A stretch of 61,333 nucleotides of DNA, counting the filler. It is 7 parts of 7 records of this genome, joined end to end, with 100 filler letters (N's around TTAATTAATTAA, not from the genome) between each part and the next. Parts side by side here need not be neighbours in the genome. Positions count along the whole stretch, not along the records: positions 45,753 to 61,333 come from SRR31147125_16449; 6 more parts are not named here. One strand, given 5' to 3'. Every line of letters starts with the position of its first letter. The stretch's first letter is position 1. The position numbers were made by a program, and so were the translations under genes. Below the pieces are notes generated by a model that saw only the letters and a list, made by a program, of their open reading frames with translations, ran no database searches and was not told the DNA's origin. Of this stretch, positions 7,007 to 61,333 are shown piece after piece.

Positions 7007-7007
7007 T

Positions 7008-38361: not shown

Positions 38362-39337
38362 CTAATTCACTTTTAATATTTTCACCCCATAGCCTTCTAT
38401 CATAACAGTATCACTTATGCCATTACCGCTTAAAACATCCTCAAACTTTTGCCTATTTAAGTTAATTTTCTTTTCTTCTTTTGTGAAGTTCATAATAAAA
38501 ACAAACTTATTCTTATCATCATATCTGGTCTGCACTGAAACACCTTCAGGAATATCGGCTCCTATAATTGTTTTTATATTCTCCTGCTTTATTAAATAAT
38601 CATAAAAATCCTTTTCAAATTCAAAATTATTTCTGAAAGCGATATAATAAGCCTTTCCTTTTCCTAATTCATTTACAGTCAATGCAGCACGGTCAGCATA
38701 AAAGTCCTCTTGATAATACCCAATTGCTCTCGCTGATTCAGGGTGTATTAAGTCACATATTTCCTTAGCCTCATATGTTTTGTCTTTTCCATCCAGTGTT
38801 ACCTTTATATGATTTCTATCCTCAGGATATAATCCATCGGTTTCCTCCGACCATATGCCCAGCACCTTGCGCAATGGTCCGGGAAATCCCTAGGAAGCAT
38901 AAATCAGTTTCATTTACAATGCCGGAAAAATATGTAGCTACAAACACGCCACCTGCTTCAACAAAGCTTTCAATCCGCTCTGCAACGCCGGGCTTTACCA
39001 TATAGAGCATAGGCGCAATAACAACCTTATACTTATCTATTGGCTGCTGCATATCAATAACGTCAACCGGTATTCCCTTCTCCCATAAAGGTCTGTAATG
39101 ACATATAACCGTTTCGAAATAATTCTTAGCACTGTTGTTAACGCCTTTTGCTTCTTCTATAGCCCAGAAATTCTCCCAGTCATAAATAATAGCTGTCTCC
39201 GGCTTTACCGTAGTTCCTACAACTCCATCCAGTTTATCCAAAGCGTAACCTAATTGGGATACATCTTTAAACACTCTGGTGTTTTCATGTCCGCAGTGGT
39301 CTATTACAGCACCATGGAACTTTTCAAAAGAACCTCT
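38362..39337 (-). CDS. GH42 beta-galactosidase, 5' truncated, one frameshift
   Basis: EKFHGAVIDH.G.ENTRVF, AIIYDWEN.WA, YKVVIAPMLYM, SGIVNE.DLC.LG/FPGPLR.VLGIW.EE; break near 38890. Confidence 0.9.
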
Positions 39338-39437
39338 NNNNNNNNNNNNNNNNNNNNNNNNNNNNNNNNNNNNNNNNNNNNTTAATTAATTAANNNNNNN
39401 NNNNNNNNNNNNNNNNNNNNNNNNNNNNNNNNNNNNN
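39338..39437. other. Artificial contig spacer
   Basis: N44-TTAATTAATTAA-N44. Confidence 0.98.
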
Positions 39438-45652: not shown

Positions 45653-45752
45653 NNNNNNNNNNNNNNNNNNNNNNNNNNNNNNNNNNNNNNNNNNNNTTAA
45701 TTAATTAANNNNNNNNNNNNNNNNNNNNNNNNNNNNNNNNNNNNNNNNNNNN
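45653..45752. other. Artificial contig spacer
   Basis: N44-TTAATTAATTAA-N44. Confidence 0.98.
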
Positions 45753-45890: not shown

Positions 45891-47063
45891 CTATCTACGT
45901 CTCTTCCTCTTGGATCCCCGAAGGGCTTTACGATATTTTTTATCATCCTTAAGATATTCTATAGCTTTAATCTTCTGCTCATCAAATCCGCTATCTTCGT
46001 CTTGTTCAAGAATAATATTTGGGACTATACCAAAACCCTGAATTGAATGACCCGAAGGCGTGTAATACTTGGCAATTGTGATTTTAAGAGCAGACCCATC
46101 ATCCAATTCCAAAACAGATTGAACAGATCCCTTACCAAAAGATTGAGTACCTACTATGACGGCTTTTCCATAATCTTTCAAAGCACCAGCTAAAATTTCA
46201 GAGGCTGAGGCACTTCCTCCGTTCACCAAAATAACAATTGGGAACTCTGAATATGTTCCGTTTCTCTTCGCATCATATTTTGCTATTTCTTGATCCCTGC
46301 TTCTCGTGCTAACAATAACACCATTATCAACAAAAAGATCAGCAACATCTATTGCCTGGCTTAAAAGACCACCTGGATTATTCCTGAGATCAATTACCAA
46401 TCCATTAATAATATTATCAGCAGAAATCTTCTTTAACTTACTCTTTAATTCTGCAGCAGTTCTTTCCTGAAAGGTGCTAATTTTTGCATAGAAATAACCT
46501 TCACCCAAATTTTCTACTGTAACGCTCGGAACTTTAATAACCTTCCTTAAAATCCTTACATCAAACGGATGTTTTTTACCTTTTCTTGTTAATGTCAAAG
46601 AAACCTTTGTACCAACTCGTCCCCTCATCATGGCAACCGCTTCGCTCAAAGTCACACCCTTTGTTGAAACACCATTTACCCTAACGATCCTATCTCCAGG
46701 CTTCACACCAACCTGAAATGCAGGAGAGCCTTCAATTGGAGAGACTATGGTCAGCCAACCTTTTTTGATAGTAACTTCAATACCAATTCCACCAAAGCGA
46801 CCTGTTGCTTCTATCTTTAGCTCACGATAGACATCCGGTGGCATATAGATAGTATGAGGATCTAAAGTCATCAACATTCCACGAATCGCTCCAGAGATCA
46901 GCCTCTTCTCATCTATACTCTCAACATAATTCTCTTCGACCTGATGCAAAACTTCAGCAAAAGAATGAAGATGCTTATATCCTTTTTCAGAAAGGGCATT
47001 GGCCTTAAAACCAATGAACAAAAAGATGAACAGCAAAGAGATAAAGACTATTTTTTTATGCAT
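45891..47063 (-). CDS. ctpA: Carboxy-terminal processing protease, S41A with PDZ domain
   Basis: LDPHT.Y, FGGIGI, DLRNNPGGLL, GSASASEI, SFGKGSVQ, YYTPSG.SIQ. Confidence 0.95.
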   Translation of the reverse strand: MHKKIVFISLLFIFLFIGFKANALSEKGYKHLHSFAEVLHQVEENYVESIDEKRLISGAIRGMLMTLDPHTIYMPPDVYRELKIEATGRFGGIGIEVTIKKGWLTIVSPIEGSPAFQVGVKPGDRIVRVNGVSTKGVTLSEAVAMMRGRVGTKVSLTLTRKGKKHPFDVRILRKVIKVPSVTVENLGEGYFYAKISTFQERTAAELKSKLKKISADNIINGLVIDLRNNPGGLLSQAIDVADLFVDNGVIVSTRSRDQEIAKYDAKRNGTYSEFPIVILVNGGSASASEILAGALKDYGKAVIVGTQSFGKGSVQSVLELDDGSALKITIAKYYTPSGHSIQGFGIVPNIILEQDEDSGFDEQKIKAIEYLKDDKKYRKALRGSKRKRRR

Positions 47064-47227
47064 AGAACTTCCCCGTTGGAGGTCAATTATTATCCTACTC
47101 TAATTAGTTGTTAACTATATAATTACGGACAGATATTATCTAGCATAATTCTTAAAGGAAAAACAGCGCTCATTAATATTACGTACAAGGTTAAGATTCT
47201 ACATATGAAACCCAAGCATATAAACAG

Positions 47228-47257
47228 TGTCATCCTCGGGCTTAACCGAGGATGACA
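47228..47257. repeat. Short perfect palindrome (REP-like or terminator) after murI
   Basis: TGTCATCCTCGG-GCTTAA-CCGAGGATGACA. Confidence 0.7.
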
Positions 47258-47269
47258 ACTAGAGGAGAA

Positions 47270-48073
47270 TTATAATTCAATTCTTTTTACAGGAGGATGG
47301 TCCTCACCTAGGAAGCGTTTTAGGGTTATTTCAAACTTCGAAGGCAGATCCGTAACATATATATGATCTTCGGCATCATTACCATTATCAGACAAAAGAT
47401 CGTTAGAAGTCAGCATCTCTTTCAAGTCAGAAGCCAAAGCCTCTGCTGAATCAACAAGAGCTACATCATCTCCCATCACTTTATTTATGATCTCTTTTAG
47501 ATGTGGGTAGTGAGTACAACCCAAAATAAGTGTGTCTATCGATTCTGCCTTCATGGTTGAAAGATATTTTTCAGCAACAGATTTCGTAATTTCGTTATCA
47601 ACCCACCCTTCTTCAACCAGTGGAACAAAGAGAGGGCATGGAAGACTGACAACCTTTGCATCAGGCGATAATTTCTTAATCCCCTGAGCATATCTATTAC
47701 TCTGAATAGTTGAATCCGTACCAATAACACCAATATTATGATTGCGGGTCTTTGCCAAAGCTGCCTTTACGCCCGGCTCAATAACCCCCATAATTGGAAG
47801 TGAGTTTTGATCTTTTAATGATGGAATTGCACAAGCAGAAGATGTGTTACAAGCTGCAACTATAGCCTTGACCTCTCTCTTCTTCAAGAAATCGGCATTT
47901 TCTAGTGAATATCTGATTATTGTCTCAGAAGACTTCGGCCCATAGGGAACTCTAGCCGTATCACCAAGATATACAACAGATTCAGTGGGCATTAGCTCTT
48001 TAATAGCCTTAAAAACTGTTAACCCCCCAACACCAGAATCAAAGATTCCTATTGCCATTTTTTTATCTATCAT
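47270..48073 (-). CDS. murI: Glutamate racemase
   Basis: FDSGVGGLTV, DTARVPYG, ACNT, LGCTHYP; start at MIDKK. Confidence 0.97.
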   Translation of the reverse strand: MIDKKMAIGIFDSGVGGLTVFKAIKELMPTESVVYLGDTARVPYGPKSSETIIRYSLENADFLKKREVKAIVAACNTSSACAIPSLKDQNSLPIMGVIEPGVKAALAKTRNHNIGVIGTDSTIQSNRYAQGIKKLSPDAKVVSLPCPLFVPLVEEGWVDNEITKSVAEKYLSTMKAESIDTLILGCTHYPHLKEIINKVMGDDVALVDSAEALASDLKEMLTSNDLLSDNGNDAEDHIYVTDLPSKFEITLKRFLGEDHPPVKRIEL

Positions 48074-48262
48074 TAATAACTCCCTAGTATTTTCTTGAAG
48101 GAAGAACACATAAACAAGCAATAAACAACTGTCAAACAAATAGTAGCAACATATTTTTCTCTTTTGTTGACCTCCTAGTTATTGTATTATGTGAAGATTG
48201 CACTGGGGGCATCCCTAACTATTTAATATTTATAATCTTTTATAAAACGAAAGGATATTTCT

Positions 48263-48955
48263 ATGTTAGCACTACTACTTGCTGAAGAAGTTGCTGAGGT
48301 TTCTCTTCAAACACAGCATAAACTGATCGAGTTATTCACTCAATCGGACATCTTCATCAAAATCACACTGATTTTGACACTTTTCTTCTCAATTACTAGC
48401 TGGGCAATCATTGGAATGAAGCAAAGACAGCTAAAAAGAGACAAAAAGAGATCAGATAAGTTTCTGACAACCTTTTGGCGAGCAAAATCGATCGATTCAT
48501 TGATCGAAAAAGGCTCATTCTTAAGAAGTCCAGTCTTCAACATCTTCAAATCAGGAATTTCTGCGCTAAAAGAGCATGGTGAAACAAAAGACAAAGAACG
48601 AATCACCTATGCAGTTCGCAAAACAATGGATGATGAAGCAGAAGGTTTGGAAAGCTACACACCTTTTCTTGCAACAACCGCAAGTGCCGCACCTTTTTTG
48701 GGTCTGTTCGGTACAGTTTGGGGAATTTTGAATGCTTTCTGGAAATTGGGCCACTCGGCTGGCGCCAACTCAATCGAAATTGTTGGACCACATATTGCTG
48801 AAGCTCTATCAACTACAGCCTTAGGTCTTGTAACAGCTATCCCGGCAGTTATCTTCTATAACTTTTTTGCAAGTAAGATTCGTTTGCAAACAAGAGATCT
48901 GAATCAGTTTGCTGGCGATTTATTAAACAGAATTGACGACGAATATTTAAAATAG
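48263..48955 (+). CDS. tolQ: TolQ (MotA/TolQ/ExbB family)
   Basis: APFLGLFGTVWGI, IAEAL..TALGL..AIPA..FYN. Confidence 0.9.
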   Translation: MLALLLAEEVAEVSLQTQHKLIELFTQSDIFIKITLILTLFFSITSWAIIGMKQRQLKRDKKRSDKFLTTFWRAKSIDSLIEKGSFLRSPVFNIFKSGISALKEHGETKDKERITYAVRKTMDDEAEGLESYTPFLATTASAAPFLGLFGTVWGILNAFWKLGHSAGANSIEIVGPHIAEALSTTALGLVTAIPAVIFYNFFASKIRLQTRDLNQFAGDLLNRIDDEYLK

Positions 48956-48976
48956 TTTTTTACCTTAGAGGTTTTT

Positions 48977-49447
48977 ATGAACGGTTCAAATCCTAGCAGT
49001 CGTGTTTTATTGGCTGATATCAACTTAACACCATTTGTTGATATCATGATGGTTCTGTTGATCATCTTTATGGTTACAGCACCGCTAATGCAACACGGAC
49101 TTGATGTTAATCTACCACAGGCAAAATCTCCGGTTATGGAGAAAAAGCAAGAAGATGTGGTTTTAACAGTAAAAAAAGATGGTTCAATGTATCTTGGAAA
49201 AGACAAGACTCCAGTATCTATCGGTTTTCTCGAACACAAACTTGGAGAAGTCTTCAAGAATGTTGATAAAAAAGATCTATATATTAGAGCAGATGATCAG
49301 GTTCTGTACGGTAGAATTGTGAACATAATGGCAGTTGCGAAAGCAGCAGGAGTCGAACGTATCGGCATGATAACAAAACCGCTTTCAAAAGTTCGTGAGG
49401 GCTCAACATCATTGATTCCACTAAACAAAGATAGCAGTAGCAGCTAA
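48977..49447 (+). CDS. tolR: TolR
   Basis: INLTPFVDIMMVLLIIFMVTAP, V.LP, IRAD..V.YG. Confidence 0.9.
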   Translation: MNGSNPSSRVLLADINLTPFVDIMMVLLIIFMVTAPLMQHGLDVNLPQAKSPVMEKKQEDVVLTVKKDGSMYLGKDKTPVSIGFLEHKLGEVFKNVDKKDLYIRADDQVLYGRIVNIMAVAKAAGVERIGMITKPLSKVREGSTSLIPLNKDSSSS

Positions 49448-49462
49448 TCATTTGGGAGATAA

Positions 49463-50197
49463 GTGAAGAGAACGAGATCAACAAAATCACCGCTAAAAAG
49501 TGCACTGATCATTTCAGCCTTATTTCATTTAACATTCATTGTTATAGTGTTGGTTGCACCTTCGGGTTGGTTTATCGATCCTAAGCCACCGATCGATTTC
49601 GTATGGATTGAGCTTCCCAAAGGAGTTGGCGAGGACATAACAACTCTTAAAGAGACAAAACAACTACCAGACAGCACGATTCAAGACCAAAAAATCACAC
49701 CGCTAAAACCTCTTCCAAAGCCAAAAGAAAAGACTATGCCTGAGCCAAAGGTTGCAAAGAAGAAGACTGTTAAGAAAAAGAAGGTCAAGAAGAGATCAAG
49801 CATGGACAGAGCTCTGGCTAAGATAGACAAACGCTTGAAAAATAGAGATACTGCTCAAGTCAAGACACCTGGATCTGGTTTTGAAGCGGGAACATCAACA
49901 AAAGTAGTTAAGGATAAAGGATATCAAACGGCTCTAATCAAATATAGAGCCCTGGTTAAGTCCCGAATCAGAAGACAATTTCGTCCACCAGAGGGTGTTC
50001 AGGGAAAGGTTGTCATTACGGTCTTTATAAGCAAGTCCGGACACGTCCTTTCTAAGCGTTGGGCCAGAAAAGCCAGCAGTGACTCTCTAAACCAGGCTGC
50101 ATGGCGCGCTGTAGATAGAGCGTCGCCATTTCCAATTCCGCCAGATCCACTCAAGTGGGAAGCCTACACAGAAGGTTTCACGATCGATTTCAAATGA
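49463..50197 (+). CDS. tolA: TolA/TonB-like periplasmic linker
   Basis: TM with S..H (SALFH), Lys/Pro-rich linker, C-terminal AA.RAV.RA.PFP; lies between tolR and tolB. Confidence 0.82.
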   Translation: MKRTRSTKSPLKSALIISALFHLTFIVIVLVAPSGWFIDPKPPIDFVWIELPKGVGEDITTLKETKQLPDSTIQDQKITPLKPLPKPKEKTMPEPKVAKKKTVKKKKVKKRSSMDRALAKIDKRLKNRDTAQVKTPGSGFEAGTSTKVVKDKGYQTALIKYRALVKSRIRRQFRPPEGVQGKVVITVFISKSGHVLSKRWARKASSDSLNQAAWRAVDRASPFPIPPDPLKWEAYTEGFTIDFK

Positions 50198-50316
50198 CGG
50201 TTTTTCAGTTGAATTAAAATCCAAAAAAATGTAATAAATTCATAATATTTATTATTTTCAGCTATGTTCACGCGAAACATAGCAACATACCGTAGTTATA
50301 TTTTAGGGGGAGCTTA

Positions 50317-51630
50317 ATGATCCGGAAAACAATTGTCTTAGTAGTATTTATCGCCTCATTTTTAATAACCAACACAAGTTTTGCAAGAATCTATATTCCA
50401 ATCGATCAACCAGCAGATCAGAAATTTCCGATCGCTATCGCCGACCTGGTCAAACTCAAAGGAAGTGGCGTCAGATCAGCAACAAAAAAGATCCCGGATG
50501 TCATTAGAAATGATCTTGAACTAACCGGTTATTTTCAGGTTGTCCCAAAACGCGCCTATCTTGATAAATCAAAAGATATTTCTGCTGACACAATAGACTT
50601 TGCAAAATGGACAAAAGTCGGAGCTCTTGCTCTTGTCAAAGGAGCTATTCAGAATGTTGACGGAAAAATAATCGTTCAGTTAAAACTTTTCGACACAAAA
50701 GATAGAGAGATGCTTGTTGGAAAACAGTACACCTTTGAAGTTAAAGACATGAGAAAGATAGCCCACCGTTTTGCTGATGAGATCATGCTTGCAACAACGG
50801 GAATCAGAGGCGTCTTCGGAACAAGAATTGCCTACATCGGCATTACCGGTAAACGCAGCAAATCAGTATATGTTATGGATATGGATGGTGAAAATGCAAA
50901 ACGCCTGACGAAAGATAAATCAATAAGCTTAGGCCCGACATGGTCACCTGATGGATTGAAACTTGCTTATTCATCATACGTTCGAGGATTCCCAGACATC
51001 TATGAAATGAATCTAGCTAATGGACGAAAACGGCAACTAACTGCAAATAGGTCGACAAACATTACGCCGGCGTGGTCGCCGCTTGGGACGTGGATTGCGT
51101 ATGCATCTTCTGCACCTGGGAATATGGAAATTTATATCATGACTCCAGAAGGTGAAAACAACAGACGAATTTCGAATTCATTTGGAATCGATCTCGCTCC
51201 AACTTTTTCACCAGATGGGAACCAGATCCTCTATTCATCAGAGAGATCAGGAGCACTGCATATCTACAAACAATCTATCATGGGTGGAAAACCAGAGAGA
51301 ATAACATATGTCGGTTCGTTTAACGACTCCCCTTCCTGGTCACCTGACGGTCAGACAGTCGCTTTTGCAGGAAGAATGGGTGGACTCTACGACATCTACA
51401 CAGTCAATATTGATGGTTCAAACGTCCAACGTCTAACGATCAGCTCAGGAAATAACGAACATCCAAGATGGTCACCAGACGGAAGGTTTCTAACATTCAG
51501 CTCAACAAGAATGGGCAAACCTTACATCTTCATGATGCGCTACGACGGAGCAAACCAGATCATGATAAGCAAAAAGAAAGGCAAAAAATACCAAGCCCTA
51601 ATGCCAGACTGGGGCCCCTGGACTGATTAG
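50317..51630 (+). CDS. tolB: TolB (TolB_N + PD40 propeller)
   Basis: AHRFADEI, F.TRIAY, repeated P.WSPDG. Confidence 0.93.
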   Translation: MIRKTIVLVVFIASFLITNTSFARIYIPIDQPADQKFPIAIADLVKLKGSGVRSATKKIPDVIRNDLELTGYFQVVPKRAYLDKSKDISADTIDFAKWTKVGALALVKGAIQNVDGKIIVQLKLFDTKDREMLVGKQYTFEVKDMRKIAHRFADEIMLATTGIRGVFGTRIAYIGITGKRSKSVYVMDMDGENAKRLTKDKSISLGPTWSPDGLKLAYSSYVRGFPDIYEMNLANGRKRQLTANRSTNITPAWSPLGTWIAYASSAPGNMEIYIMTPEGENNRRISNSFGIDLAPTFSPDGNQILYSSERSGALHIYKQSIMGGKPERITYVGSFNDSPSWSPDGQTVAFAGRMGGLYDIYTVNIDGSNVQRLTISSGNNEHPRWSPDGRFLTFSSTRMGKPYIFMMRYDGANQIMISKKKGKKYQALMPDWGPWTD

Positions 51631-51684
51631 AGTTTGTCGGGATACCTAGTAAATTTTATTTACTAGGTATCCCTTACAAACTCT
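51629..51684. terminator. Long hairpin after tolB
   Basis: AGAGTTTGT..GGGATACCTAGTAAAT-TTT-ATTTACTAGGTATCCC..ACAAACTCT. Confidence 0.7.
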
Positions 51685-51748
51685 TATACTGCACCAAGAA
51701 AATATAATCGTTACAGTGCTAACCTTGTATCAAGCCTGAAGATTTTAG

Positions 51749-51778
51749 AAGGTGACGAAGCAACAACTTCGTTACCTT
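51749..51778 (-). terminator. Hairpin after the kinase gene
   Basis: AAGGTGACGAAG-CAACAA-CTTCGTTACCTT. Confidence 0.5.
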
Positions 51779-51780
51779 TT

Positions 51781-53445
51781 TTATTTACATGAAATGCTAC
51801 CGTGCTTTGTAAAATCAGCGTAGCATCTGTGATTTCTTCCTGCCTTTATATCAACTTTTGCGGTTAGCCATTTGTTTGAGGGAGCGTAGTGAACCTTTAT
51901 ATTATGGATGCCGGGTTTCAATCGAATCATGCTAACGGGAGACTCTCTTTTTGAAATCACGTTTGGAATATGAACGTAGCCCCAAGGCCTTGCTTGGATG
52001 CTAAGGATCCCAGGCTTATTAGATTTCAAATGATAGTTTTTAGAAATATAGGAAGAATCAGGTTCTATCTCTATCACCTCATTTATCTTTTCATACCCCT
52101 CTAACTCTAAACTTAGATTTATATTTGAAGTTTTAGAGATATCTAGGTCCGCCAAAACAAATGGCGTTACCAAATCTTTTGTTTTTCCATTATATTCAAG
52201 CGAAGCTTTAGCACCCGATGGCACTGAATCTATACTCAACACTCCTTCATGCGTTATCTTAGGACTCTCTTGCAATTTTTTTATTTTCTCCACGGGTTTA
52301 AAGAAAACACCATCACCACCATATCTTCTAGGCTTCATCAGAAGATTCCCATCGGCTTTTTTTCCCACTCCAAGCATCACAACAAACAGACCAAGGAAAC
52401 AGCAGATAAAGACTCTAGACCCGATCATCTTTAAAGGGAACGCAACCTCATTTTTTCTTTTTAACACTTTAGTTTTCTGACACCCTCGCAATGGGACATT
52501 TTTCTTTTTATATTTTTCATCGATGAATAGCTCATTTATATAATCGGCCAACTCCAAACCATGAGTATGCAACTTTTTCATTCCAATATATTCATTTAGA
52601 TCTCTCAAAAATTCCGAAGCACTTTGGTAACGTCCATCTCTATCTTTTGATAATGCCTTTTTTATAATTTCTCTCATATTTAAAGAGACCTTGTGCTCCC
52701 AAAATTCGGGCAATCTTGAATCTCTGACATTCTGAATTATCTCAAAATCGCTCTTTGAACAAAACAGACGATCCCCCGTAAGAATTTCAAATAGAACAAT
52801 ACCTACTGAATAGAGATCTGACCGAAAATCGATATCTTCCCCAAAAGCCTGCTCAGGCGACATATAGGCGTATTTCCCAATAAGTCTCGCAGTTGTTGTC
52901 TCTTTGCTCCTATGCAAACCCTTCGCAATACCAAAATCGGTCAGCTTAACTTCGCCATTATATGAAATAAGGATATTCTGTGGAGAGACGTCACGGTGAA
53001 CTATATTTAAACCGTTTCCTTTTTCATCAACTCGCTTATGTGCAAAATCTAAAGCTCTTAACACTTCGCAAAGTATAAAAAGAGCATATTTCTCTGGCAT
53101 ACAGAACGATTCTTTACTAACTTTTTTACAAAGACGCTTAAGATCAACACCATCTATATATTCCATCGAGATATAAGAACAACTTCCATCTTTCCCTAAC
53201 TCGAACACCTGAACAATATTCTGATGCTGAAGATTCATGACAGCATTTGCCTCATCAACAAGCATCTCCTCAAACTCAGGTTTATCAGACCAATGGGGCA
53301 AAATCCGCTTAATTGCTACATTCTTTGTAAAACCCCTATCACCCTTATACTTACCTCGAAAAATCTCAGCCATTCCACCTTCGGCTATCTTCTCCTTTAA
53401 GACATATCTTCCAAACTTATATGGCAACTTTGAAATTTGAGTCAT
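51781..53445 (-). CDS. Hanks-type Ser/Thr kinase, one TM, extracytoplasmic PEGA-like domains
   Basis: GGMAEIF, VAIKR, HRDVSPQN, DFGIAK, YMSPEQ; TM VFICCFLGLFVVMLGV; LSIDSVPSGA and LSIQARPWGYV. Confidence 0.93.
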   Translation of the reverse strand: MTQISKLPYKFGRYVLKEKIAEGGMAEIFRGKYKGDRGFTKNVAIKRILPHWSDKPEFEEMLVDEANAVMNLQHQNIVQVFELGKDGSCSYISMEYIDGVDLKRLCKKVSKESFCMPEKYALFILCEVLRALDFAHKRVDEKGNGLNIVHRDVSPQNILISYNGEVKLTDFGIAKGLHRSKETTTARLIGKYAYMSPEQAFGEDIDFRSDLYSVGIVLFEILTGDRLFCSKSDFEIIQNVRDSRLPEFWEHKVSLNMREIIKKALSKDRDGRYQSASEFLRDLNEYIGMKKLHTHGLELADYINELFIDEKYKKKNVPLRGCQKTKVLKRKNEVAFPLKMIGSRVFICCFLGLFVVMLGVGKKADGNLLMKPRRYGGDGVFFKPVEKIKKLQESPKITHEGVLSIDSVPSGAKASLEYNGKTKDLVTPFVLADLDISKTSNINLSLELEGYEKINEVIEIEPDSSYISKNYHLKSNKPGILSIQARPWGYVHIPNVISKRESPVSMIRLKPGIHNIKVHYAPSNKWLTAKVDIKAGRNHRCYADFTKHGSISCK

Positions 53446-53455
53446 TTTTATACTC

Positions 53456-54972
53456 TTAGTTTATCAAATCATTTGTTTTATATATCTGCCAGGAAACTGA
53501 AGACCCATCATTAAACATACTTGACGAATGACAATTTTTACCGTGATTAAGAGCAAAGGAAACAACATGAACACAGTTATACTTAAAATCTACAGGGGAC
53601 TGATAAATGGAAATTGATTCATCATATGATGTTGGGAACATCTTCCACGGAGAGCTATCAATCGTCGGCAACATTATGCCGCTTGATGGTATCTTTACAG
53701 AGACATTAGCACTAAACCGAGCATAAACTGTACCCTCACCCATACTACAATTTATATTATTTGGACCATCGCTTGTTTTTCTACTAACTACACAAACAAC
53801 GTGAGGACACCCCCAAGTTGTTGTGCATCATCACCCATTGAAGGATTTGCCAAATAGAGAACATAATCTCTTGGCGGACTCATTAGAGACGTGCCGCTAT
53901 AGTCAATATAACATTCCATACTAGTATTACTCTGGTCGAGAAGCCAACCTCCATACTGAATATAAGCTTTACCACTTCCTAACTGGGATACTGAATCATT
54001 AATATCTGTAATTCTAGCAACCGTGTCTGGAATTTTATCATCCTTGATTACTTCATGATCAAACAACTCCTCTCTTGAAACAGCGTCAATTGATGCAGGC
54101 GTAATACTGCCTATTTTGGAATCAACATACTCTTTAGAGGTTGCATCGGTTGAAGAAACAGGAGTCTTGATGCCCGTAATTGCATTACCAGCCATATTCA
54201 AACTACCCTTCATTATATCAGAGCCATCAAGACTTAAATTTCCCTTATCCACCATCTTTGAGTCTTCCGCCCTCTTTTTAATAGACAAATCAAAGTCAGT
54301 TAAGACATCTTGAACATTTTTTGAGCTTGAGTAAGTAAAATCTGGTTCGACTCCAACACTAAAAGCGCCCTCGGTATTCGATATTGAACTTTTATAATCA
54401 TCAAATTCTGTTCTTGAAATAATTGGAGAAGTTGAATCGGAATCATCTAGAATTGTTTGTTTTAATTCATCAACCAAATCAGTCTTCAAATGATTCAACG
54501 AAATCGACTTTTCTTTTATTTGAGCTTCACCTACAGACTGATCTGCAACTTTAAATGCCACGCTGGCATAAGATGAATAAGGAACACTGACAATTTCCAT
54601 GATGGGTTCGGGAGGATACCCTTCCGCTTGAATCTCAAGATATTTAGGCTCATCAGGCTTTAGACTCTCTATATCTAAGCCTCCAGTTAGGACGGCATCT
54701 AAAGGAGACTCACCCGCGCCTATTGATATAGAAACAACGCCAGAAATGACTTCAACATTTTGGACCTCTTCATATAAAACATCAAAACTTGAATTCAAAA
54801 TTTTAATATTAATCACAGATTCACCATTAGGAAGAGGATTCCCAGTTTCATCAAAAAGAACGGCCTGATAATTAATCAACCTTGGGACCTCCATATTTAG
54901 CGCAAATACATTTGAAACTGCGACAAAAGATACAAACAACGCAAACAATAAACACAATGACTTTTTATTCAT
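53456..54972 (-). CDS. Secreted tail-fibre/adhesin-like protein, probably one gene split by a frameshift
   Basis: Signal peptide; INYQ..L.D..G.P...SVPY N-domain; LNMAGNAITG..TP....DATSKEYVD motif. One extra G in the G5 run (53810-53814) fuses ORFs 53788-54972 and 53456-53743. Confidence 0.65.
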
Positions 54973-54984
54973 TTTTTCCTCCCA

Positions 54985-55431
54985 TTATCTAACTATAAAC
55001 TCAACCCGCCTATTTTTTCTCCATGCATCCCTATTATGAGCAACATCTACAGGACGCGATTCTCCATAACTAACAACCATAATTATTCGATTATGATCTA
55101 CCCCATTCTTGATCAGGAGGCTCTTGACCTCCCTAGCTCGCCTATCACCAAGCTCCATATTATATTTATTTGGGCCAACTTCATCACAGTGCCCCTCTAA
55201 AATAATGACAACATCCTTATTACGATTCATCCACTCTGCATTTTTTTCAAGAAGTCTTAGATCGCTCTGTTGAAGGACATCCCTATCAAACAAAAAACGA
55301 ACTGTTGGATATGGAACATTTTCCGTCAAAGCATTCTTATAAACCTTGGACCTCTGCACTGCGCATGAATTAAGAGCAAGGAGCGACAGAGCACACAAAA
55401 GAATTAAACTTTTTCCATATCTTAGGATCAT
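54985..55431 (-). CDS. Pal-like OmpA_C peptidoglycan-binding lipoprotein
   Basis: Lipobox LNSC; EGHCDE.G...YN..LG.RRA, VSYGE..P, KNRRVEF. Confidence 0.9.
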   Translation of the reverse strand: MILRYGKSLILLCALSLLALNSCAVQRSKVYKNALTENVPYPTVRFLFDRDVLQQSDLRLLEKNAEWMNRNKDVVIILEGHCDEVGPNKYNMELGDRRAREVKSLLIKNGVDHNRIIMVVSYGESRPVDVAHNRDAWRKNRRVEFIVR

Positions 55432-57659
55432 TTCTCTATTGCTCCGATATCATATTGACCATTAAAACGTTCCTGGCCAAAATAGTCTGTCTCAACTGTT
55501 CCATAATTCTCTTCATCGGTATCGATTCCTTCATTAACCAAACATGAACAAACTGGCTCATAGCCAAAACCTATAAGCGTCAAAAAAGGATCAGTATATT
55601 TCTGATTATTTTGAACCAAGGCATCACCAATAGAAGTATTGGCATCATAGTGAAACTGTCCTTCACAATCGACAAAAAGAGCATTCGATCCACCTGAATC
55701 AAATGTTGAAAACATATTATTTCTAAATTCGGAGACACCTGATGAAGGAGATTCGCCAAAACATTTCATTGCAATCGCATCTGAGCCATTTAAAGAATCG
55801 GCTACAACTATATTATTCAAAATCAAAGGATCACTGTTCTTAAAGATAAGGCCGGTAGACGTTCCAGCCTCTTCAGATCTTGATGTTCCATCTATCGTAT
55901 TATTGCTAATGACTGGACTGAGCCCTATAATCTCTACACCCGTTGCATGCTTGGCATTTCCTGCTCTGACAATATTATTAATTACAACCGGCGTTGCATG
56001 CTCACTATAGATACCTTTATTTTCAACGGCGCTCTCAGTTCCTACTCTGGCAATATAATTCCCTTCAATCCGAGGACTTCCTCCCAAAATATTAACCCCA
56101 ACTGTGTGTGCAGAGCCCTCGCCTGAATAAACCATATTATTTCTAAGAACAATTCCAGCACTTGTATTTACAAGCTTAACGGTACTTGAATATCTATTTT
56201 TTAGAGCGTTAATAATATGAAAACCGTCAATAACAATTGAACCATGACTTTCATTTAGATTTATGGTTGACGAATTGTTATCGCTAAATAACGTTGTGAG
56301 ATATTCTGATGATATACTACGAACATCTCTGTGATCTTCAAGATCAGTATTCAAATCATCAAACTTAGACCCATCATAACCGCCCTTAAGATTGATTCCA
56401 TTTTTGAAAATAAGATCATTTATATTATAAATTCCAGAAGCGACTACAACATCTTCATTGCGCAAGTGAGCTAGCAAAATCCCCTTCTGAATTGTAGCAA
56501 CGGGAGCATTAAACGTTCCCATATCCTCATCAGAACCATCATCACCATCTACGTAAACGTAGGAACGTCCATCACCATCAATATCGTCATCACAGACATC
56601 ACCAAGCTTATCTGCATCAACATTGTATTGATATGAGAGATCCGAATCCGTATTTAACTGATTGGCGTTTGCTATCTCTGGACAATTATCACCATTATCA
56701 CCAACACCATCCCCATCTTTATCTGCCCATTCCTCTGAGTCTAGAGGAAAGAAGTCAATTTTATCGTTATAGCCATCTGAGTCACTATCAACGCTTAGAG
56801 GATCTAAACCAAAATCTATTTCTATTTTATCACTCAATCCATCATCATCGCTATCTGTTGCAAATAGGTTTGTTCCATACTTCTTTTCATCATCATCAGG
56901 CAATCCATCACCATCCGTATCATTATCACAGGCATCGCCTTTACCGTCATCATCAATATCCTTCTGATCATCATTTATAACTAAGGGACAATTATCGTCA
57001 GAGTCTATAAATCCATCGCTATCTGTATCTGCATCAACTGGGGACGTTCCGTTTTCAAGCTCTTTGTCATTAGAAATAGTATCGCCATCAATATCACTAT
57101 CCTCATTATCTCCAATTCCATCTCCATCGGTATCCAGCCATTCAACAGAATTGCTTGGAAACAAATCTTCTCCATCTATTTTTTCATCGCCGTCAGTATC
57201 AGGCGAAAACGGGTCCAACCCTAGACTTACTTCATCTAAATTGCTGAGCAGATCATCGTCCAGATCTCCCCCACCAATAGAAGTATAATCATCTAATGTT
57301 AGCTCAATATATGACTCTCCGCCCGTCAACTCGAGCATACCTTCAGCTTGAGCTAGAAGCAGTTCACTACCCATATATTGATATTTTATTCCAAGCCTAA
57401 AAAGATAATTTCCTTTTGGAACATCTCCAAAGTCAAAAACAAACTCCTCACCGTCAACGGCAGGAGCTATATCGGACAGAATAACAACATCCTCATTAAT
57501 CAGACTCCCGTACAATCGATACGAACTAGAGTCTAGCTCCACGAGAGCTTCCGGCCAAACAAGTCCAAGCCTAACCTCTCCAGCAGATGAACCCCCTCCA
57601 CTGCCTCCGCAACCCACAACAACAAACAGACAAAACAAAAACAAAACAATCTTCTTCAT
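55428..57659 (-). CDS. Lipoprotein with TSP3/Ca-binding repeats and C-terminal right-handed beta-helix
   Basis: Lipobox VVGC + Gly/Ser linker; many DxDxDG and DNCP..N..Q.D.D.DG.GDAC repeats; YVD..GSD...GT...P..TI..GI; NN ladders; terminal DIGAIE. Confidence 0.85.
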   Translation of the reverse strand: MKKIVLFLFCLFVVVGCGGSGGGSSAGEVRLGLVWPEALVELDSSSYRLYGSLINEDVVILSDIAPAVDGEEFVFDFGDVPKGNYLFRLGIKYQYMGSELLLAQAEGMLELTGGESYIELTLDDYTSIGGGDLDDDLLSNLDEVSLGLDPFSPDTDGDEKIDGEDLFPSNSVEWLDTDGDGIGDNEDSDIDGDTISNDKELENGTSPVDADTDSDGFIDSDDNCPLVINDDQKDIDDDGKGDACDNDTDGDGLPDDDEKKYGTNLFATDSDDDGLSDKIEIDFGLDPLSVDSDSDGYNDKIDFFPLDSEEWADKDGDGVGDNGDNCPEIANANQLNTDSDLSYQYNVDADKLGDVCDDDIDGDGRSYVYVDGDDGSDEDMGTFNAPVATIQKGILLAHLRNEDVVVASGIYNINDLIFKNGINLKGGYDGSKFDDLNTDLEDHRDVRSISSEYLTTLFSDNNSSTINLNESHGSIVIDGFHIINALKNRYSSTVKLVNTSAGIVLRNNMVYSGEGSAHTVGVNILGGSPRIEGNYIARVGTESAVENKGIYSEHATPVVINNIVRAGNAKHATGVEIIGLSPVISNNTIDGTSRSEEAGTSTGLIFKNSDPLILNNIVVADSLNGSDAIAMKCFGESPSSGVSEFRNNMFSTFDSGGSNALFVDCEGQFHYDANTSIGDALVQNNQKYTDPFLTLIGFGYEPVCSCLVNEGIDTDEENYGTVETDYFGQERFNGQYDIGAIEK

Positions 57660-57671
57660 CGATCTCCTCCT

Positions 57672-58502
57672 TTACCTCTCTAGAAATATTGAATCCAACA
57701 CAGCACTCCAAAGCAAACCATTGTCATGCGATGGATGAGAGAAAGCACCAAGCCTACCCGTCTTAAGATAATAACCGCTCACCCCAACGTATCCTCCGCT
57801 AAACAACGATACTGAGTTCAAATTTATCTTTTTTAAGATCTTTAAATCGATACTTGATGAATATCCTGAACTCTGAGATCTAACTGTAAATCGATGACCA
57901 CCCTCTTTCACTGATTTTGGGGATATAAACAAAAGTCCATTAGCACTGCTAACGGACATCGTTGTGGAATTGGTTGAAGGATTTATCATTAGATTCTTAG
58001 AATTTTCATATTCGTCTTCGATCTCCAGAACCGACTCATCTGATGAGTATATTTTTAAAACTAATCTATTAGATGGAATACTTAAATCATTTTTGAGACC
58101 AACAAAGATAGGAACGGACAGCATTTCAATCTCAACTTCTGATACTTGTCCGGGCACAACTTTTACGCTAAAACTTTCACCTCTCAAAATGACCTGATTG
58201 TCATTGTTAATAGCTTCAACAGTGATCCTTTTTTCACCTCCCGCCGGGATATTTTCAATTAGAGCTGATTCAGAATCAGAACCATAATCACTAACCAAAG
58301 GGGAATCTAGGCCATCTCCATCAACAGTAATTCTATACTTCATAATTTCTGCATAGCCCTGCCCCCGACCTGCATCTTCTGACCTATTTATAATAAGTTT
58401 TAATGAGAGTTGATTTTCTACAGAGTCATCATAAAGGGAACCATCTGAACCACATGAAGTAAAAATGGATAATATTAACGTTATTAATATGATTTTTTTC
58501 AT
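57672..58502 (-). CDS. Hypothetical lipoprotein, beta-sandwich-like
   Basis: MKKIILITLILSIFTSC lipobox; IENIPAG...ITVEA pattern. Confidence 0.75.
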   Translation of the reverse strand: MKKIILITLILSIFTSCGSDGSLYDDSVENQLSLKLIINRSEDAGRGQGYAEIMKYRITVDGDGLDSPLVSDYGSDSESALIENIPAGGEKRITVEAINNDNQVILRGESFSVKVVPGQVSEVEIEMLSVPIFVGLKNDLSIPSNRLVLKIYSSDESVLEIEDEYENSKNLMINPSTNSTTMSVSSANGLLFISPKSVKEGGHRFTVRSQSSGYSSSIDLKILKKINLNSVSLFSGGYVGVSGYYLKTGRLGAFSHPSHDNGLLWSAVLDSIFLER

Positions 58503-58509
58503 ATATTGC

Positions 58510-59799
58510 CTACCTAAATGAAACACTTATATTTCCTGTTGTTGGAGTTTCACCTCCACTGCTTCCTCCAGAGAATGCAGTCGCGAGGCCTGCACCTAAA
58601 CCAGCTGCCAACACCCCACCAATAATGCTGAATAAAATTGGTTTTGATATCTTTGACTGTCGCTTTTTACTTAAGAGTACAACATCACCAGAACCAATTG
58701 GTTCTGAATACTTATAAGGGTTACTCGCAATATTTATGCCGGCTTGAGATGCTATTTTTTGAGACAAAGATTTAATTGTGGAATTCTTTAGTAAGTCTTG
58801 AGAACTGATGCTTATATTTATAGGTTTTAATCCTGTTTTATATTTGGCATCGACAACTCTCGCACGCACTTTTTTTTCAGATAATCCCTTGGAATCAAAA
58901 TCAAGAAGCACAACCTTATCTACTCTTAAAACTTCTGCAATCTTCAAAGCTTCATCTAGAGGGGTGTTTAAAGATTCTGGCCCACTATTTTTGGCAAAAA
59001 ACCTCTCTCCTAACCATTTCAAGCGCTCTTTTACCCGTACGGTTTTTCCAGCTTTCAAATAGAGGCTCTTTCTTGATGAACTATACTTATTTGCAGTAAC
59101 TTCAATCTGGTATTTTCCTTCTGGAAGATTCTCCAAAATCAGAGGTGTAACACCTCTATTAATTCCATTGATATAAACATCGGCAACTTTAAGATTACTA
59201 TAAACCTTGATTTTCCCCCTCGGCAAGATCGCTACAAACTCCCTTGCCTTTTCAAATTCTCTCATAAGGGAGGGAGGAAAGGCCCGACTGTCCAGATTGT
59301 AATCAGGGTTCAACCGGAGGGCTTGGGTAAAAGCCTGCCGGGCCTCACCAATGTTACCTATGGATTTGAAAATAATTCCCAATGTAAGATAGGCATCAAG
59401 AAGAGAACTCCCGTTATCAAAAAGAAGCTCTGCATTTCGTTCAATATCACTAATGATCTTCTTTACAATCGACTTTGCCTCTATATAGTTAAATTGATAA
59501 TACTGTTTTTTTGATTCAGCTAAGAGCCTACGAATCCTCTTTGAAAACAGTGAAGAAGACTTTCTATCGTGATACCCAAGAACCTTTTCAACATTCTCAG
59601 GACTGACAACATTTATCCCTCTAATTTTCAGATCATTTGACACACCCCTGACCAGATCTTCAAATAGAGGATCCCGCTCTTCGACTCCAAGGGAAACAAT
59701 AGCCATATCAATCTTAGATTTTGAATATGCAAAAGAGTGAATTGTAAAAACCTGTCCAACAACTAGAAGCACAATTAAAATATTTTTTAGCAGATTCAT
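58510..59799 (-). CDS. Exported TPR + PEGA protein with C-terminal hydrophobic segment
   Basis: Signal peptide; TPR AYLTLG..F...G...EA...F.QAL.LNP; PEGA ADVYING..RG.TPL..ENL.EG.Y.IEV; C-terminal Gly/Ala-rich hydrophobic stretch. Confidence 0.85.
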   Translation of the reverse strand: MNLLKNILIVLLVVGQVFTIHSFAYSKSKIDMAIVSLGVEERDPLFEDLVRGVSNDLKIRGINVVSPENVEKVLGYHDRKSSSLFSKRIRRLLAESKKQYYQFNYIEAKSIVKKIISDIERNAELLFDNGSSLLDAYLTLGIIFKSIGNIGEARQAFTQALRLNPDYNLDSRAFPPSLMREFEKAREFVAILPRGKIKVYSNLKVADVYINGINRGVTPLILENLPEGKYQIEVTANKYSSSRKSLYLKAGKTVRVKERLKWLGERFFAKNSGPESLNTPLDEALKIAEVLRVDKVVLLDFDSKGLSEKKVRARVVDAKYKTGLKPINISISSQDLLKNSTIKSLSQKIASQAGINIASNPYKYSEPIGSGDVVLLSKKRQSKISKPILFSIIGGVLAAGLGAGLATAFSGGSSGGETPTTGNISVSFR

Positions 59800-60083
59800 G
59801 CAGGCCGCTAATTCAATAAGAGTGCCAACTTGAAGCAATTCGGAATATCGTACAGTGAATCAACGAGTTACGCTCAACTTGTAAAAGAATCAGCTTAAAG
59901 ATTGAACAGATTAAACTTTCCAAATCCAGAACACCCACTGTCATCTTCTCCGGAATGTTGAACAGATTGCCGTTAACAAACTGTTAACGATTTCGACACT
60001 CCATGGGCTATTTTCGGGCAACTTATTTTCCATTCTTAGCGAAACCCATTTATAACTTTTAAAACCCTAACTAGGAGGAAAGA

Positions 60084-60683
60084 ATGGGAGATGTAACATT
60101 AGAACCTAGAGTTCTATACGCAGTTGATGTTTTAGCAAACGAAGCTAGCGGAAAAAAACCAGACGGCACACTTACACCAAGAGAATCAGCAGCATTTTGC
60201 GCAATGGAGCTTCAACAATCTGACGGCTGTGATCCTTGTGGAGATTTGATAACCAGATTTAAGGAATTATTTTGTGGAAATACAAGGCCTTCTGAACCAC
60301 TCACTTACTGGGCTGGGATTAAAGATTCATCAGGTAGAGCTCATACTGTAGTGAACCCAAAACTTCGTGAAACACTTATGAAAGCTGACTTTGAATATGG
60401 TAATAGTGATGGCGTTACAACCCCAAATGAAATTGCCGAACTCAGACTTGATCTTGGAGTAGTAAGCTGCTCGGCAAATTTTACTTTGCAGGCTGGAAAA
60501 ATTGTTTCAATGGGTGGAGACTGTACCTTTAGTGGAAACACAAAAGAGTGCAAACCGCTTGACGATGCTTTAAGAGCAATCTCCTCAGAACTACTTACAG
60601 AAGTAGCTCAAAAAACAACTGAATCTTTGAGTGTCTATGGTGAAACCCTTAGAGGCGTCATACCCCAAAGAAGCAGCAAATAA
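60084..60683 (+). CDS. Hypothetical protein
   Basis: 199 aa, AGGAGG RBS, downstream hairpin; no family recognised. Confidence 0.7.
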   Translation: MGDVTLEPRVLYAVDVLANEASGKKPDGTLTPRESAAFCAMELQQSDGCDPCGDLITRFKELFCGNTRPSEPLTYWAGIKDSSGRAHTVVNPKLRETLMKADFEYGNSDGVTTPNEIAELRLDLGVVSCSANFTLQAGKIVSMGGDCTFSGNTKECKPLDDALRAISSELLTEVAQKTTESLSVYGETLRGVIPQRSSK

Positions 60684-60707
60684 TATTTGTTAATAATCAA
60701 AAGGTAA

Positions 60708-60738
60708 GATGGCGGGGCTAAAAACCCTGCCATTTTCA
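60708..60738 (+). terminator. Probable terminator
   Basis: ATGGCGGGG / CCCTGCCAT stem followed by T-rich tract. Confidence 0.6.
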
Positions 60739-60759
60739 TTTTTATTAACATCTTATTGT

Positions 60760-60854
60760 ATTATCGCGAGAAGCTCTGCAAAGCGATGCGCCAATCCAGA
60801 AATCTCAACTATTTAAAGTGGATTGCCGCGTCGCCAAGGCTCCTCGCAATGACA
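60760..60854. repeat. REP/RPE-like palindromic element, copy 2
   Basis: TATCGCGAGAAG...CCAATCC...TGGATTGCCGCGTCGCC..GGCTCCTCGCAATGACA. Confidence 0.8.
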
Positions 60855-60915
60855 GCAGTAGCAAACTCTTTATTTTCGATTGACAAAAGAGGCTCTCTTT
60901 GCTTTTTATCCGGCC

Positions 60916-61254
60916 ATGGATCAGCTAAAACAAGCATTAGTAAAGGCGGGACTTGCTCCTAAAGAGACTTTGGAAGATAAGAAAAAAGCTCCTAAAAAAA
61001 GCAAGGTCCCAAAAAAAGAATTTAAGAAATATGGTAATCACCAGATCAGAACTGATTGCGAACATTGTGGCAACTATTCACCTGATGTTGAATACTATAA
61101 GCACAACAATCGTTTAATCGTTAAGCGCTGGTTATGCGTAAAGTGCGCTGACGAATATCAGATATCTGATGACCTAAGAGATACAAATCAGAGTTCAAAT
61201 GCAAGATCTGGACAATTCAGACGTATGTGGGGAAGAACTAAGAGGTTTAAATAA
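60916..61254 (+). CDS. Small basic hypothetical protein with CxxC...CxxC zinc ribbon
   Basis: CEHC...CVKC; Lys-rich N-terminus, Arg-rich C-terminus; start uncertain. Confidence 0.65.
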   Translation: MDQLKQALVKAGLAPKETLEDKKKAPKKSKVPKKEFKKYGNHQIRTDCEHCGNYSPDVEYYKHNNRLIVKRWLCVKCADEYQISDDLRDTNQSSNARSGQFRRMWGRTKRFK

Positions 61255-61304
61255 AACTTTCGAATCGGTTCTCCACAAGGTCAAACACTATTGATATTAT
61301 ATAC

Positions 61305-61333
61305 TGGATCCCGGATCGGGGTCCGGGATGACA
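61305..61333. repeat. REP-like half element
   Basis: CTGGATCCCGGA-TCGGGG-TCCGGGATGACA with the same ATGACA terminus as the other elements. Confidence 0.65.

Follow-up and report, generated by a model that had tools for sequence, protein, structure and literature searches.

The chimeric fibres of Bdellovibrio, known as mosaic adhesive trimers (MATs), were described by Caulton et al. in 2024 (PMC10769870). According to the accessible part of that paper, the N-terminal domain (hereafter referred to as the N-domain) of the MATs has no homolog in the Protein Data Bank (PDB), the fibres were found in a vesicle whose marker is CpoB, a TPR protein associated with Tol-Pal, and the surface partner of the invariant N-domain "awaits further study"; in the accessible part of a 2026 review of Bdellovibrio (PMC13689555), the fibres are still without a named anchor. 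We describe here a six-gene cluster located at positions 51781-59799 of a 61,333-nt stretch of DNA (the whole stretch analysed, hereafter referred to as the window), in which an apparent distant relative of these fibres is encoded together with a Pal paralog and two other lipoproteins, a protein with TPR and PEGA domains, and a kinase. To our knowledge, the MAT fibres are the only prey-recognition proteins identified in Bdellovibrio. The cluster may show how MAT-like fibres are held on the cell, its lipoproteins and TPR/PEGA protein constituting a short list of candidate docking partners. In the window, it represents an envelope module that is specific to the lineage and has the conserved core g1-g2-(g3)-g4-g5, which we read tentatively, with somewhat less than even confidence, as an envelope-anchored platform displaying a fibre with an exchangeable tip, the kinase being loosely coupled to it.

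Translation of the open reading frames (ORFs) confirmed that the six-gene cluster is real and that its domains had been correctly read. The genes, all on the minus strand, fill positions 51781-59799 exactly, the start codon of g1 being the ATG at 59799:

59799..58510, minus strand: g1, 429 aa, exported protein with TPR and PEGA domains
58502..57672, minus strand: g2, 276 aa, lipoprotein matching no family
57659..55428, minus strand: g3, 743 aa, lipoprotein with TSP3 repeats and a predicted beta-helix
55431..54985, minus strand: g4, 148 aa, lipoprotein with an OmpA_C domain, a Pal paralog
54972..53456, minus strand: g5, secreted fibre-like protein, present as assembled as ORFs 54972..53788 and 53743..53456
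53445..51781, minus strand: g6, 554 aa, Hanks-type Ser/Thr kinase with a PEGA ectodomain

The membrane segment of g6, the signal peptides and the lipobox cysteines of g2, g3 and g4 are readable in the translations. Pfam and NCBIfam assignments agreed with the translations on the co-oriented set and the domains proposed in a model-generated note on this DNA (hereafter referred to as the original prediction), including a PEGA domain in both the first and the last gene product (2e-11 in g1 and 9.2e-6 in g6). The tight spacing that it described, with gaps of 7-12 nt or an ATGA overlap, was found from g1 to g5 (7 nt for g1-g2, 12 nt for g2-g3, a 4-nt ATGA overlap for g3/g4 and 12 nt for g4-g5), but not between g5 and g6, which are separated by 342 nt in the assembly.

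Conservation of the gene set in a metagenome-only phylum

When species genomes were scanned for the pattern of the g5 alignment, a single locus was returned, in a metagenome-assembled genome titled "Deltaproteobacteria bacterium" (G001). The phylum of this relative, with 93 species genomes, is small, separate and known only from metagenomes, and the deltaproteobacterial setting that had been proposed was not borne out: the relatives found fall in this phylum, and it is the title of one record that carries the deltaproteobacterial name. Matches to g1 were obtained in 76 of the 93 genomes, mostly as a single full-length copy with 25-38% identity. For 80 g1 loci, from 69 genomes, the surrounding region (about 16-19 kb) was searched, by tblastn first and then with hidden Markov models built from the orthologs; many of these loci are cut by contig ends, and the following counts are lower bounds:

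At least one of g2, g4 and the g5 N-domain beside g1: 53 of 80 loci, 47 of 69 genomes
g2, g4 and the g5 N-domain together beside g1: 37 of 80 loci, 33 of 69 genomes
g3 beside g1: 35 of 80 loci, 32 of 69 genomes
Kinase with a g6-type ectodomain within 13 kb of g1: 14 of 80 loci, 14 of 69 genomes
tolB within 16 kb of g1: 6 of 80 loci, 6 of 69 genomes
g1 alone: 26 of 80 loci, 21 of 69 genomes

Counted singly, g2 lay beside g1 at 48 of the 80 loci and g4 at 50. Unsupervised clustering of the ORFs from -6 to +14 kb of g1 recovered g4 (50 loci), g2 (48), g3 (40), the g5 N-domain (37) and kinases (32), and no other family recurring around the 80 loci, with no barrel, secretin or phage gene among them. 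Since the arrangement recurs in dozens of genomes, it is far beyond chance. The order g1-g2-(g3)-g4-g5 is found across the phylum, and the failure of gene order to persist in relatives, which the original prediction had set in advance as its refutation, was not what we observed. Three variants (g1-g4-g2-g5, g1-g4-g3-g2-g5 and g1-g2-g3-g5-g4-g6) keep the same set in another order, and the G+C content of the first 21 loci ranged from 0.39 to 0.60.

A quick maximum-likelihood tree was estimated for g1 on 74 rows, 7 of the 81 candidates having been dropped (match below 120 bits, length below 330 aa, or a stop). On this tree, the distinction between g1 in a cluster and g1 alone corresponds to one change. 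The g1 of the window forms a long branch, with no more than 33% identity to any row. In the g1-alone loci sampled, g1 is flanked on one side by an aroE-like gene and on the other by an unrelated gene that is conserved. At two loci (L051, 10148-11650, and L003, 15910-18168), a matrixin-like secreted protein (Peptidase_M10; 31.1 and 26.7 bits, respectively, against a cut-off of 24) replaces the fibre between g4 and the kinase, and a protein with TSP3 repeats and LRRs is encoded nearby at a third (L049). Judging from these ORFs, position 5 appears to be a slot, taken by another secreted protein where g5 is absent.

These features bear on a fairly unlikely account of the cluster, in which it would be a co-regulated "surface protein" operon, with joint expression of proteins that each act alone. 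Such an operon would be consistent with the replacement of the position-5 gene by a protease or another adhesin-like protein, with the coming and going of g3, and with the location of g5-like genes away from g1 in 20 of the 46 cases listed. It fits less well with the retention of g1, g2, g4 and the g5 N-domain together through changes of order and over the range of G+C content given above for the first 21 loci. In comparative-genomics practice, retention through rearrangement is more typical of genes with interacting products, which is an argument rather than a test. If the cluster merely encoded co-regulated envelope proteins, the result would be a useful annotation and no more.

Several additional observations were made at these loci. 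L039 and L040 have extra lipoprotein genes between g5 and g6. Between the fibre and kinase genes, L034 (7858-8193) and L040 (8270-8599) share a small conserved ORF without counterpart in the window, whose 109-111-aa product starts like a signal peptide and matches no Pfam family. A set of 62 metagenome loci retrieved with a closer g1 alignment was rejected as a source of relatives, the match being limited to the TPR stretch (about residues 65-213, E values of 3e-6 or weaker).

The fibre-like protein and its lipoprotein companions

In g5, the signal peptide is followed by a conserved N-domain predicted to form a beta-sandwich (about residues 30-130), then by a helical stalk, and the tip at the C-terminus is variable. 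It was matched by the NCBIfam model Bdello_MAT_N (NF053851) with an E value of 1.2e-7 (31.7 bits, under the cut-off of 60), and the same model (E<=0.001) matched 17 of 19 g5 orthologs, with a best E value of 2e-10, as well as 68 of 70 more remote family members retrieved by exhaustive profile searching, with a best E value of 3e-12. On this profile evidence, the g5 N-domain appears to be a distant relative of the N-domain of the Bdellovibrio MAT fibres, and the proposal that g5 is fibre-like and akin to them is supported. Across the phylum, Bdello_MAT_N had hits in 36 of the 93 genomes, none of them over the cut-off, and 26 of the 46 MAT_N-like hits listed lie within 12 kb of a g1 hit. The conserved portion of g5 extends over about the first 240 residues only, as judged by tblastn and a 19-sequence alignment, and in this alignment the tips differ in both length and sequence among orthologs. 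Close homologs of g5 are few (four in an index of 5.8 billion proteins), and none of the 247 pattern matches obtained with the g5 alignment in metagenomes was a relative.

In the AlphaFold monomer model of g5 (mean predicted local distance difference test, pLDDT, of 59.8), the beta-sandwich at 30-130 contains blocks with pLDDT values of 91-97, followed by low-confidence helices beyond residue 130. This model had no match in the PDB at E<=0.001 with Foldseek, and the single match in a PDB sequence search with the g5 profile (E value of 0.3) was taken as chance. Leads in the ESM Atlas, all below 0.9, were phage or bacterial clusters. The N-domain profile matched 31,416 representatives at E<=0.001, 2,164 at 1e-10 or less and 132 at 1e-30 or less. 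In one giant protein (P0154, 6027 aa), it matched 22 separate stretches, so giant proteins can also carry the N-domain motif in tandemly repeated form.

In the assembly, the g5 frame is terminated at 53788, leaving 342 nt to g6, and its apparent C-terminus is carried by a separate 95-aa ORF (53743..53456) in another frame. The downstream frame aligned with residues 401-502 of a 506-aa homolog (P0001; E value of 5e-6), and no significant alignment was obtained between this frame and the homolog P0003. A Logan contig of sequencing run X1 spans positions 47000-61333 and has one extra C behind 53809, where the coding-strand homopolymer is extended from G5 to G6. X1 is probably the source sample, and its Logan contig is an independent assembly rather than independent data. 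The extra base would yield a single 505-aa g5 frame, ending 10 nt before g6, and the break is most likely an assembly error. The same contig has another extra C at 47245, between the S41 protease and murI ORFs, and the window assembly seems to carry single-base indels. The fibre gene of L034 is likewise split, into overlapping ORFs (6158-7069 and 6993-7856), the second of which resembles, by eye, the C-terminal tip of the intact 575-aa fibre of L040.

Ten viral models matched the structural model of g5 at E<=0.001, minor tail, tail and BppU proteins among them, the template-modelling scores (TM-scores) being low (0.12-0.15 over the whole query). It is very improbable that the locus is a prophage or tailocin remnant in which g5 is a stray tail-fibre gene with unrelated neighbours, although these ten matches to phage minor tail, BppU and tail-fibre models and a repeat motif of apparent phage tail-fibre type, seen by eye in the g5 proteins of the window, P0001 and L001, would be expected of such a remnant. 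No other phage family recurs around g1 in the 80 loci, the chromosomal context is the same across the phylum, the neighbours are lipoproteins and a Pal paralog, and the contig of the window that bears the cluster carries tol genes, murI and an S41 protease gene instead of phage genes. The tips of the L034 and L040 fibres were also considered as phage tail-collar domains, on the basis of HxH motifs, and this assignment was dropped, as Pfam found no family.

The first lipoprotein, g2, had no Pfam or NCBIfam match. Its lipobox cysteine is invariant across 18 orthologs, the PDB search gave weak fibronectin-type-III matches (E value of 0.004), and the ESM Atlas leads, all below 0.9, were immunoglobulin (Ig)-like lipoproteins; g2 probably consists of two beta-sandwich domains. 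In g3, an N-terminal beta-rich region is followed by TSP3 calcium-binding repeats (Pfam TSP_3, 3.2e-6; thrombospondin/COMP, 4e-20 in the PDB sequence search). Of the calcium-binding lipoproteins announced in the plural by the original prediction, only g3 qualifies through its TSP3 repeats; g2 does not, having no family match. The C-terminus of g3 is predicted to adopt a right-handed beta-helix (pectin-lyase-like) fold (pLDDT of 86, predicted template-modelling score, pTM, of 0.88). The best VIA matches of this region, with Z scores of 20-24, were glycoside hydrolases, polysaccharide lyases, phage tailspike depolymerases and the adhesin PfbA, with values of 23.8 for 5mqp_A (root mean square deviation of 3.4 over 273 aligned residues), 22.2 for 5olq_A, 21.8 for the tailspike 6f7k_A and 21.7 for the adhesin 3zpp_A; Foldseek against the PDB gave a best E value of 1.1e-3, and DUF1565 was matched in 6 of 12 g3 orthologs. 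A beta-helix of this type would bind or cut glycans.

In the g1 protein, a signal peptide and an alpha/beta region precede one TPR (TPR_1, 6.6e-6) and the PEGA domain, after which come another conserved region, a hydrophobic segment towards the C-terminus and a tail. A PDB profile search returned TPR proteins as the sole matches, no match to CpoB or YbgF models was found in the NCBIfam scan, and nine close homologs are present in the index of 5.8 billion proteins. In an alignment of 22 orthologs, the tail has the conserved form TG(S/N)xSVxF(K/R). At the g1 C-terminus in the window (58510-58600) and in the orthologs, a basic stretch is followed by a glycine-rich hydrophobic segment and then by a tail of the form SGGS..TGSVxVxFK, the window version being TGNISVSFR. 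The PEP-CTERM and MYXO-CTERM sorting signals have their elements in the reverse of the basic-hydrophobic-motif order of g1. Possible roles for this tail are those of a Ser/Thr target in the cytoplasm and of a new type of sorting tag.

The last of the lipoproteins, g4, has the lipobox LNSC and an OmpA domain (Pfam, 9.3e-19, residues 46-141). Its score against Pal_lipo (TIGR02802) was 108.7 bits, below the cut-off of 125.35, and the cluster copies among those listed for the relatives reached about 100-110 bits. A protein above the curated Pal_lipo cut-off is encoded on other contigs in 84 of the 93 related genomes. The view of g4 as a Pal paralog, put forward from the sequence, was upheld by these scores and by the presence of a canonical Pal elsewhere in those relatives. 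We had considered g4 as the sole Pal, there being no pal after tolB in the window, and rejected this candidate because of the canonical Pal elsewhere in relatives. The g4 gene is placed inside the cluster and not downstream of tolB, on the strand opposite to the tol genes:

48263..51630, plus strand: tolQ, tolR, tolA and tolB, converging on g6 (Pfam MotA_ExbB, ExbD, TonB_2 and TolB_N+PD40)

Three loci (L077, L079 and L083) have a tandem g1-g4-g1'-g4' arrangement, in which the second OmpA_C copy lies in frames of about 460 aa and may be a fused form of the anchor.

This neighbourhood raises the question of a periplasmic envelope-integrity module allied to Tol-Pal, in which the outer membrane would be tethered to peptidoglycan by the Pal paralog, the TPR protein and the lipoproteins, with g5 as a periplasmic strut rather than an adhesin. 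We consider this unlikely. It would account for the Pal-like nature of g4, the location of the cluster beside a pal-less tolQRAB in the window and six related genomes, the lack of a recurring outer-membrane export route near g1 in the 80 loci, and, by analogy, the travelling of the Bdellovibrio MAT fibres with CpoB, as given in the accessible part of PMC10769870. A hypervariable tip on a conserved base, as in g5, fits outside ligands better than an internal strut, however. In addition, tol adjacency is limited to 6 of 69 genomes, the genes converge and share no operon, canonical Pal is present elsewhere in 84 of the 93 genomes, and g1 is unmatched by the CpoB/YbgF models.

The kinase, the proposed platform and its surroundings

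The kinase g6 has a cytoplasmic kinase domain (Pkinase, 5.1e-42; 144.5 bits, cut-off 31.7), one membrane segment and an ectodomain containing PEGA (9.2e-6). The motifs VAIK, HRDVSPQN, DFG and SPE are all present in the translation and, with the Pkinase score over the cut-off, bear out the description of g6 as a kinase with intact catalytic motifs. Its ectodomain was matched in 73 of the 93 genomes, mostly once per genome, in frames of about 450-600 aa. The original prediction had treated the kinase as a fixed member of the cluster, and in this it was mistaken: a kinase of the g6 type is found no more than 13 kb from g1 in 14 of 69 genomes, and in 20 of 20 genomes examined with a non-adjacent kinase, neither the cluster nor the tol genes were present within about 8 kb of it. 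On the g1 tree, the kinase-linked label required seven changes, at least three of them forced by starred branches, with a mean of 13.7 changes for shuffled labels and none of 500 shuffles as low as seven. The kinase is thus independently conserved, and has either reached its place next to the module on more than one occasion or often been moved away from it. The distribution of the label hints at a functional link between kinase and module. The cluster-kinase-tolB arrangement of the window is shared by six related genomes.

A closer union, in which all six products would form one trans-envelope contact-sensing machine and the fibre would signal through PEGA-PEGA contacts between g1 and the kinase, appears unlikely to us. 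The PEGA domains on both g1 and g6 point in this direction, as do the presence of a kinase within 13 kb of g1 in 14 genomes at no fewer than four or five places in the tree, the variety of its placements (after g5, upstream of g1, divergent and convergent) and the conserved Thr/Ser (TGS) in the g1 tail past the membrane segment. The ectodomain is nonetheless found in 73 of 93 genomes, yet all 20 non-adjacent kinases examined lack the cluster and the tol genes within about 8 kb, and 38 of the 74 g1 tree rows represent clusters with no kinase nearby; the g1-g6 interface is putative. PEGA is a common beta-sandwich of envelope proteins. Contact sensing by the cluster may be one of its functions.

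On the reading that we favour, an envelope-anchored platform with an exchangeable fibre tip, g5 would be the fibre and would probably form a trimer, by analogy with its relatives in Bdellovibrio (the MATs) and in phages. Docking on the cell would be the role of the invariant beta-sandwich at its N-terminus, and binding of ligands outside, for example polymers or other cells, that of its variable tip. The Ig-like g2 and g3 would lie at the outer membrane as dock and companion, g3 forming a calcium-stiffened TSP3 stalk that ends in a glycan-binding or glycan-cutting beta-helix. The assembly would be tied to peptidoglycan by g4, with g1 as a periplasmic scaffold fixed to the membrane through its C-terminal segment. 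The kinase g6 would be a separately conserved sensor, repeatedly adjoining the module, which may read the state of the module and phosphorylate cytoplasmic targets.

Several points weigh against this platform. Physical contacts between the products are putative; a complex prediction for three copies of g5 (residues 26-250) with g2 (residues 18-276), run without our alignments or folded controls, gave 0.02/0.01 against a mark of 0.34 and counts neither for nor against such contacts. The g5 protein of the window and its 18 aligned relatives all score below 60 bits against Bdello_MAT_N, most of them covering the first half of the model only, and 20 of the 46 MAT_N-like genes listed are not near g1. 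The fold of the N-domain is a generic sandwich of the Ig/fibronectin-type-III kind (best VIA Z score of 6.5), and, judging from the profile search, this domain belongs to a widespread and very large superfamily, so that alone it says little on function. Around g1 in the 80 loci, no export route for g5, such as a barrel or a secretin, is found repeatedly, and a Sec-exported g5 could stay periplasmic. In G001, the g5 homolog lies on a contig other than that of the cluster, without the other five genes; g3 was undetected in L040, L042 and L045, where g5 is present; and the kinase is located away from the cluster in most genomes. Because g1 stands alone at 26 loci (21 genomes), with only two changes needed for these rows on the g1 tree, it can work without the other cluster genes. 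The evidence for a canonical Pal comes from the genomes of relatives and not from that of the window.

The window contains one further feature next to the cluster:

51747..51780, plus strand: terminator-like hairpin between the converging ends of tolB and g6 (consensus scan; 14-pair stem, then a T run)

Terminator-like sites in the region, from the same type of scan, numbered seven against a shuffle mean of 5.4, and are not above shuffles; sigma-70-type sites (30 against 26.8 in shuffles) are uninformative on operon structure. A search for sequencing runs containing the stretch returned one DNA run (X1) and no RNA run. The window was scanned for tRNA genes and Rfam families, and none was found. 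Besides the cluster, the contig at 45753-61333 encodes an S41 protease, murI and tolQ-tolR-tolA-tolB. Two ORFs upstream of and divergent from g1 (60084-60683 and 60880-61254) had no Pfam match at E<=0.001 and no tblastn match in 21 related loci.

The window consists of seven contigs joined by linkers at 6907-7006, 19263-19362, 27757-27856, 34230-34329, 39338-39437 and 45653-45752, each of 100 nt (44 N, TTAATTAATTAA and 44 N), so gene neighbourhood across these points is meaningless. The contigs at 1-6906 and 27857-34229 have a G+C content of about 0.55, versus about 0.32-0.44 elsewhere in the window, and may come from another organism of the same bin or represent acquired DNA; these high-GC stretches were rejected as islands, being separate contigs joined by N-linkers. 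Two adjacent ORFs at 38362-39274, close to a contig end at 39337, both match the trimerisation domain of GH42 beta-galactosidase, which points to a split gene.

Comparison with described systems

In the literature searched, which did not include the supplements of PMC10769870 with their lists of MAT-like proteins, we found no named system of this composition, in agreement with the original prediction. The cluster offers an initial way into the function of a surface structure that is conserved in a metagenome-only phylum. A bolder and rather doubtful proposal is that g1, g2 and g4, with g3 where present, constitute a dedicated docking and anchoring apparatus for the MAT-type N-domain, a hitherto unrecognised platform with interchangeable cargo (fibre, protease or LRR adhesin), a tie to peptidoglycan through the Pal paralog, and monitoring by a PEGA kinase. 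If this were true, these proteins would be the "surface element" left open by the work on Bdellovibrio.

The kinase resembles the PknB/Stk1-type kinases in having a cytoplasmic kinase domain, one membrane segment and an ectodomain, and PknB_PASTA_kin matches its kinase part at 257.5 bits; it differs from them in that its ectodomain contains PEGA rather than PASTA and in that its score is below the 450-bit cut-off of the family. With Tol-Pal, the cluster shares the architecture of Pal (lipobox and OmpA_C) in g4, a TPR protein (g1) nearby, and the adjoining tolQRAB in the window and six relatives. Unlike the components of Tol-Pal, g4 is under the Pal equivalog cut-off, with a canonical Pal elsewhere in relatives, g1 is not CpoB-like by the models scanned, and the cluster converges on tolB from outside that operon.

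In Myxococcus, TraB is a single protein with TSP3 repeats and OmpA_C, and TraA has PA14 and MYXO-CTERM features. The cluster recalls this pair in combining a variable surface recognition protein with an anchor of TSP3 repeats and OmpA_C, and the NCBIfam model of TraB (NF033763) matches the OmpA part of g4 at 64.4 bits. This score is, however, far under the TraB cut-off of 700 bits, and TSP3 (g3) and OmpA_C (g4) are encoded by separate genes. A Pfam/NCBIfam scan of the seven ORFs gave no PA14 or MYXO-CTERM match of the TraA type, and g3 matches MtsC through its TSP3 repeats only (66.9 bits, cut-off 350).

The receptor-binding fibres of phages share with g5 an N-terminal beta-sandwich and helical stalk, with matches to BppU, minor tail and tail-fibre models at E values of 5e-5 to 8e-4, and the logic of a conserved dock with a variable tip. 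They differ from it in the low TM-scores (0.12-0.15) and the lack of phage structural genes near g1, and the dock of g5 would be a component of the cellular envelope. The MAT fibres, like g5, have a signal peptide, a conserved beta-rich N-domain, a stalk and a swappable C-terminal tip, and the g5 N-domain has no clear PDB homolog, as stated for the MAT N-domain in the accessible part of PMC10769870. By contrast, all scores of the aligned g5 family and of the 93 genomes are below the curated cut-off for the MAT N-domain, the g5 family is about 300-575 aa long versus about 1000 aa for the MATs, and there are usually one or two such proteins per genome versus 21 in Bdellovibrio. A further difference from the MATs, for which the accessible part of PMC10769870 gives no gene neighbourhood, is that the g5 gene belongs to a conserved cluster, in which its companions encode lipoproteins, among them the Pal paralog, and the TPR/PEGA protein.

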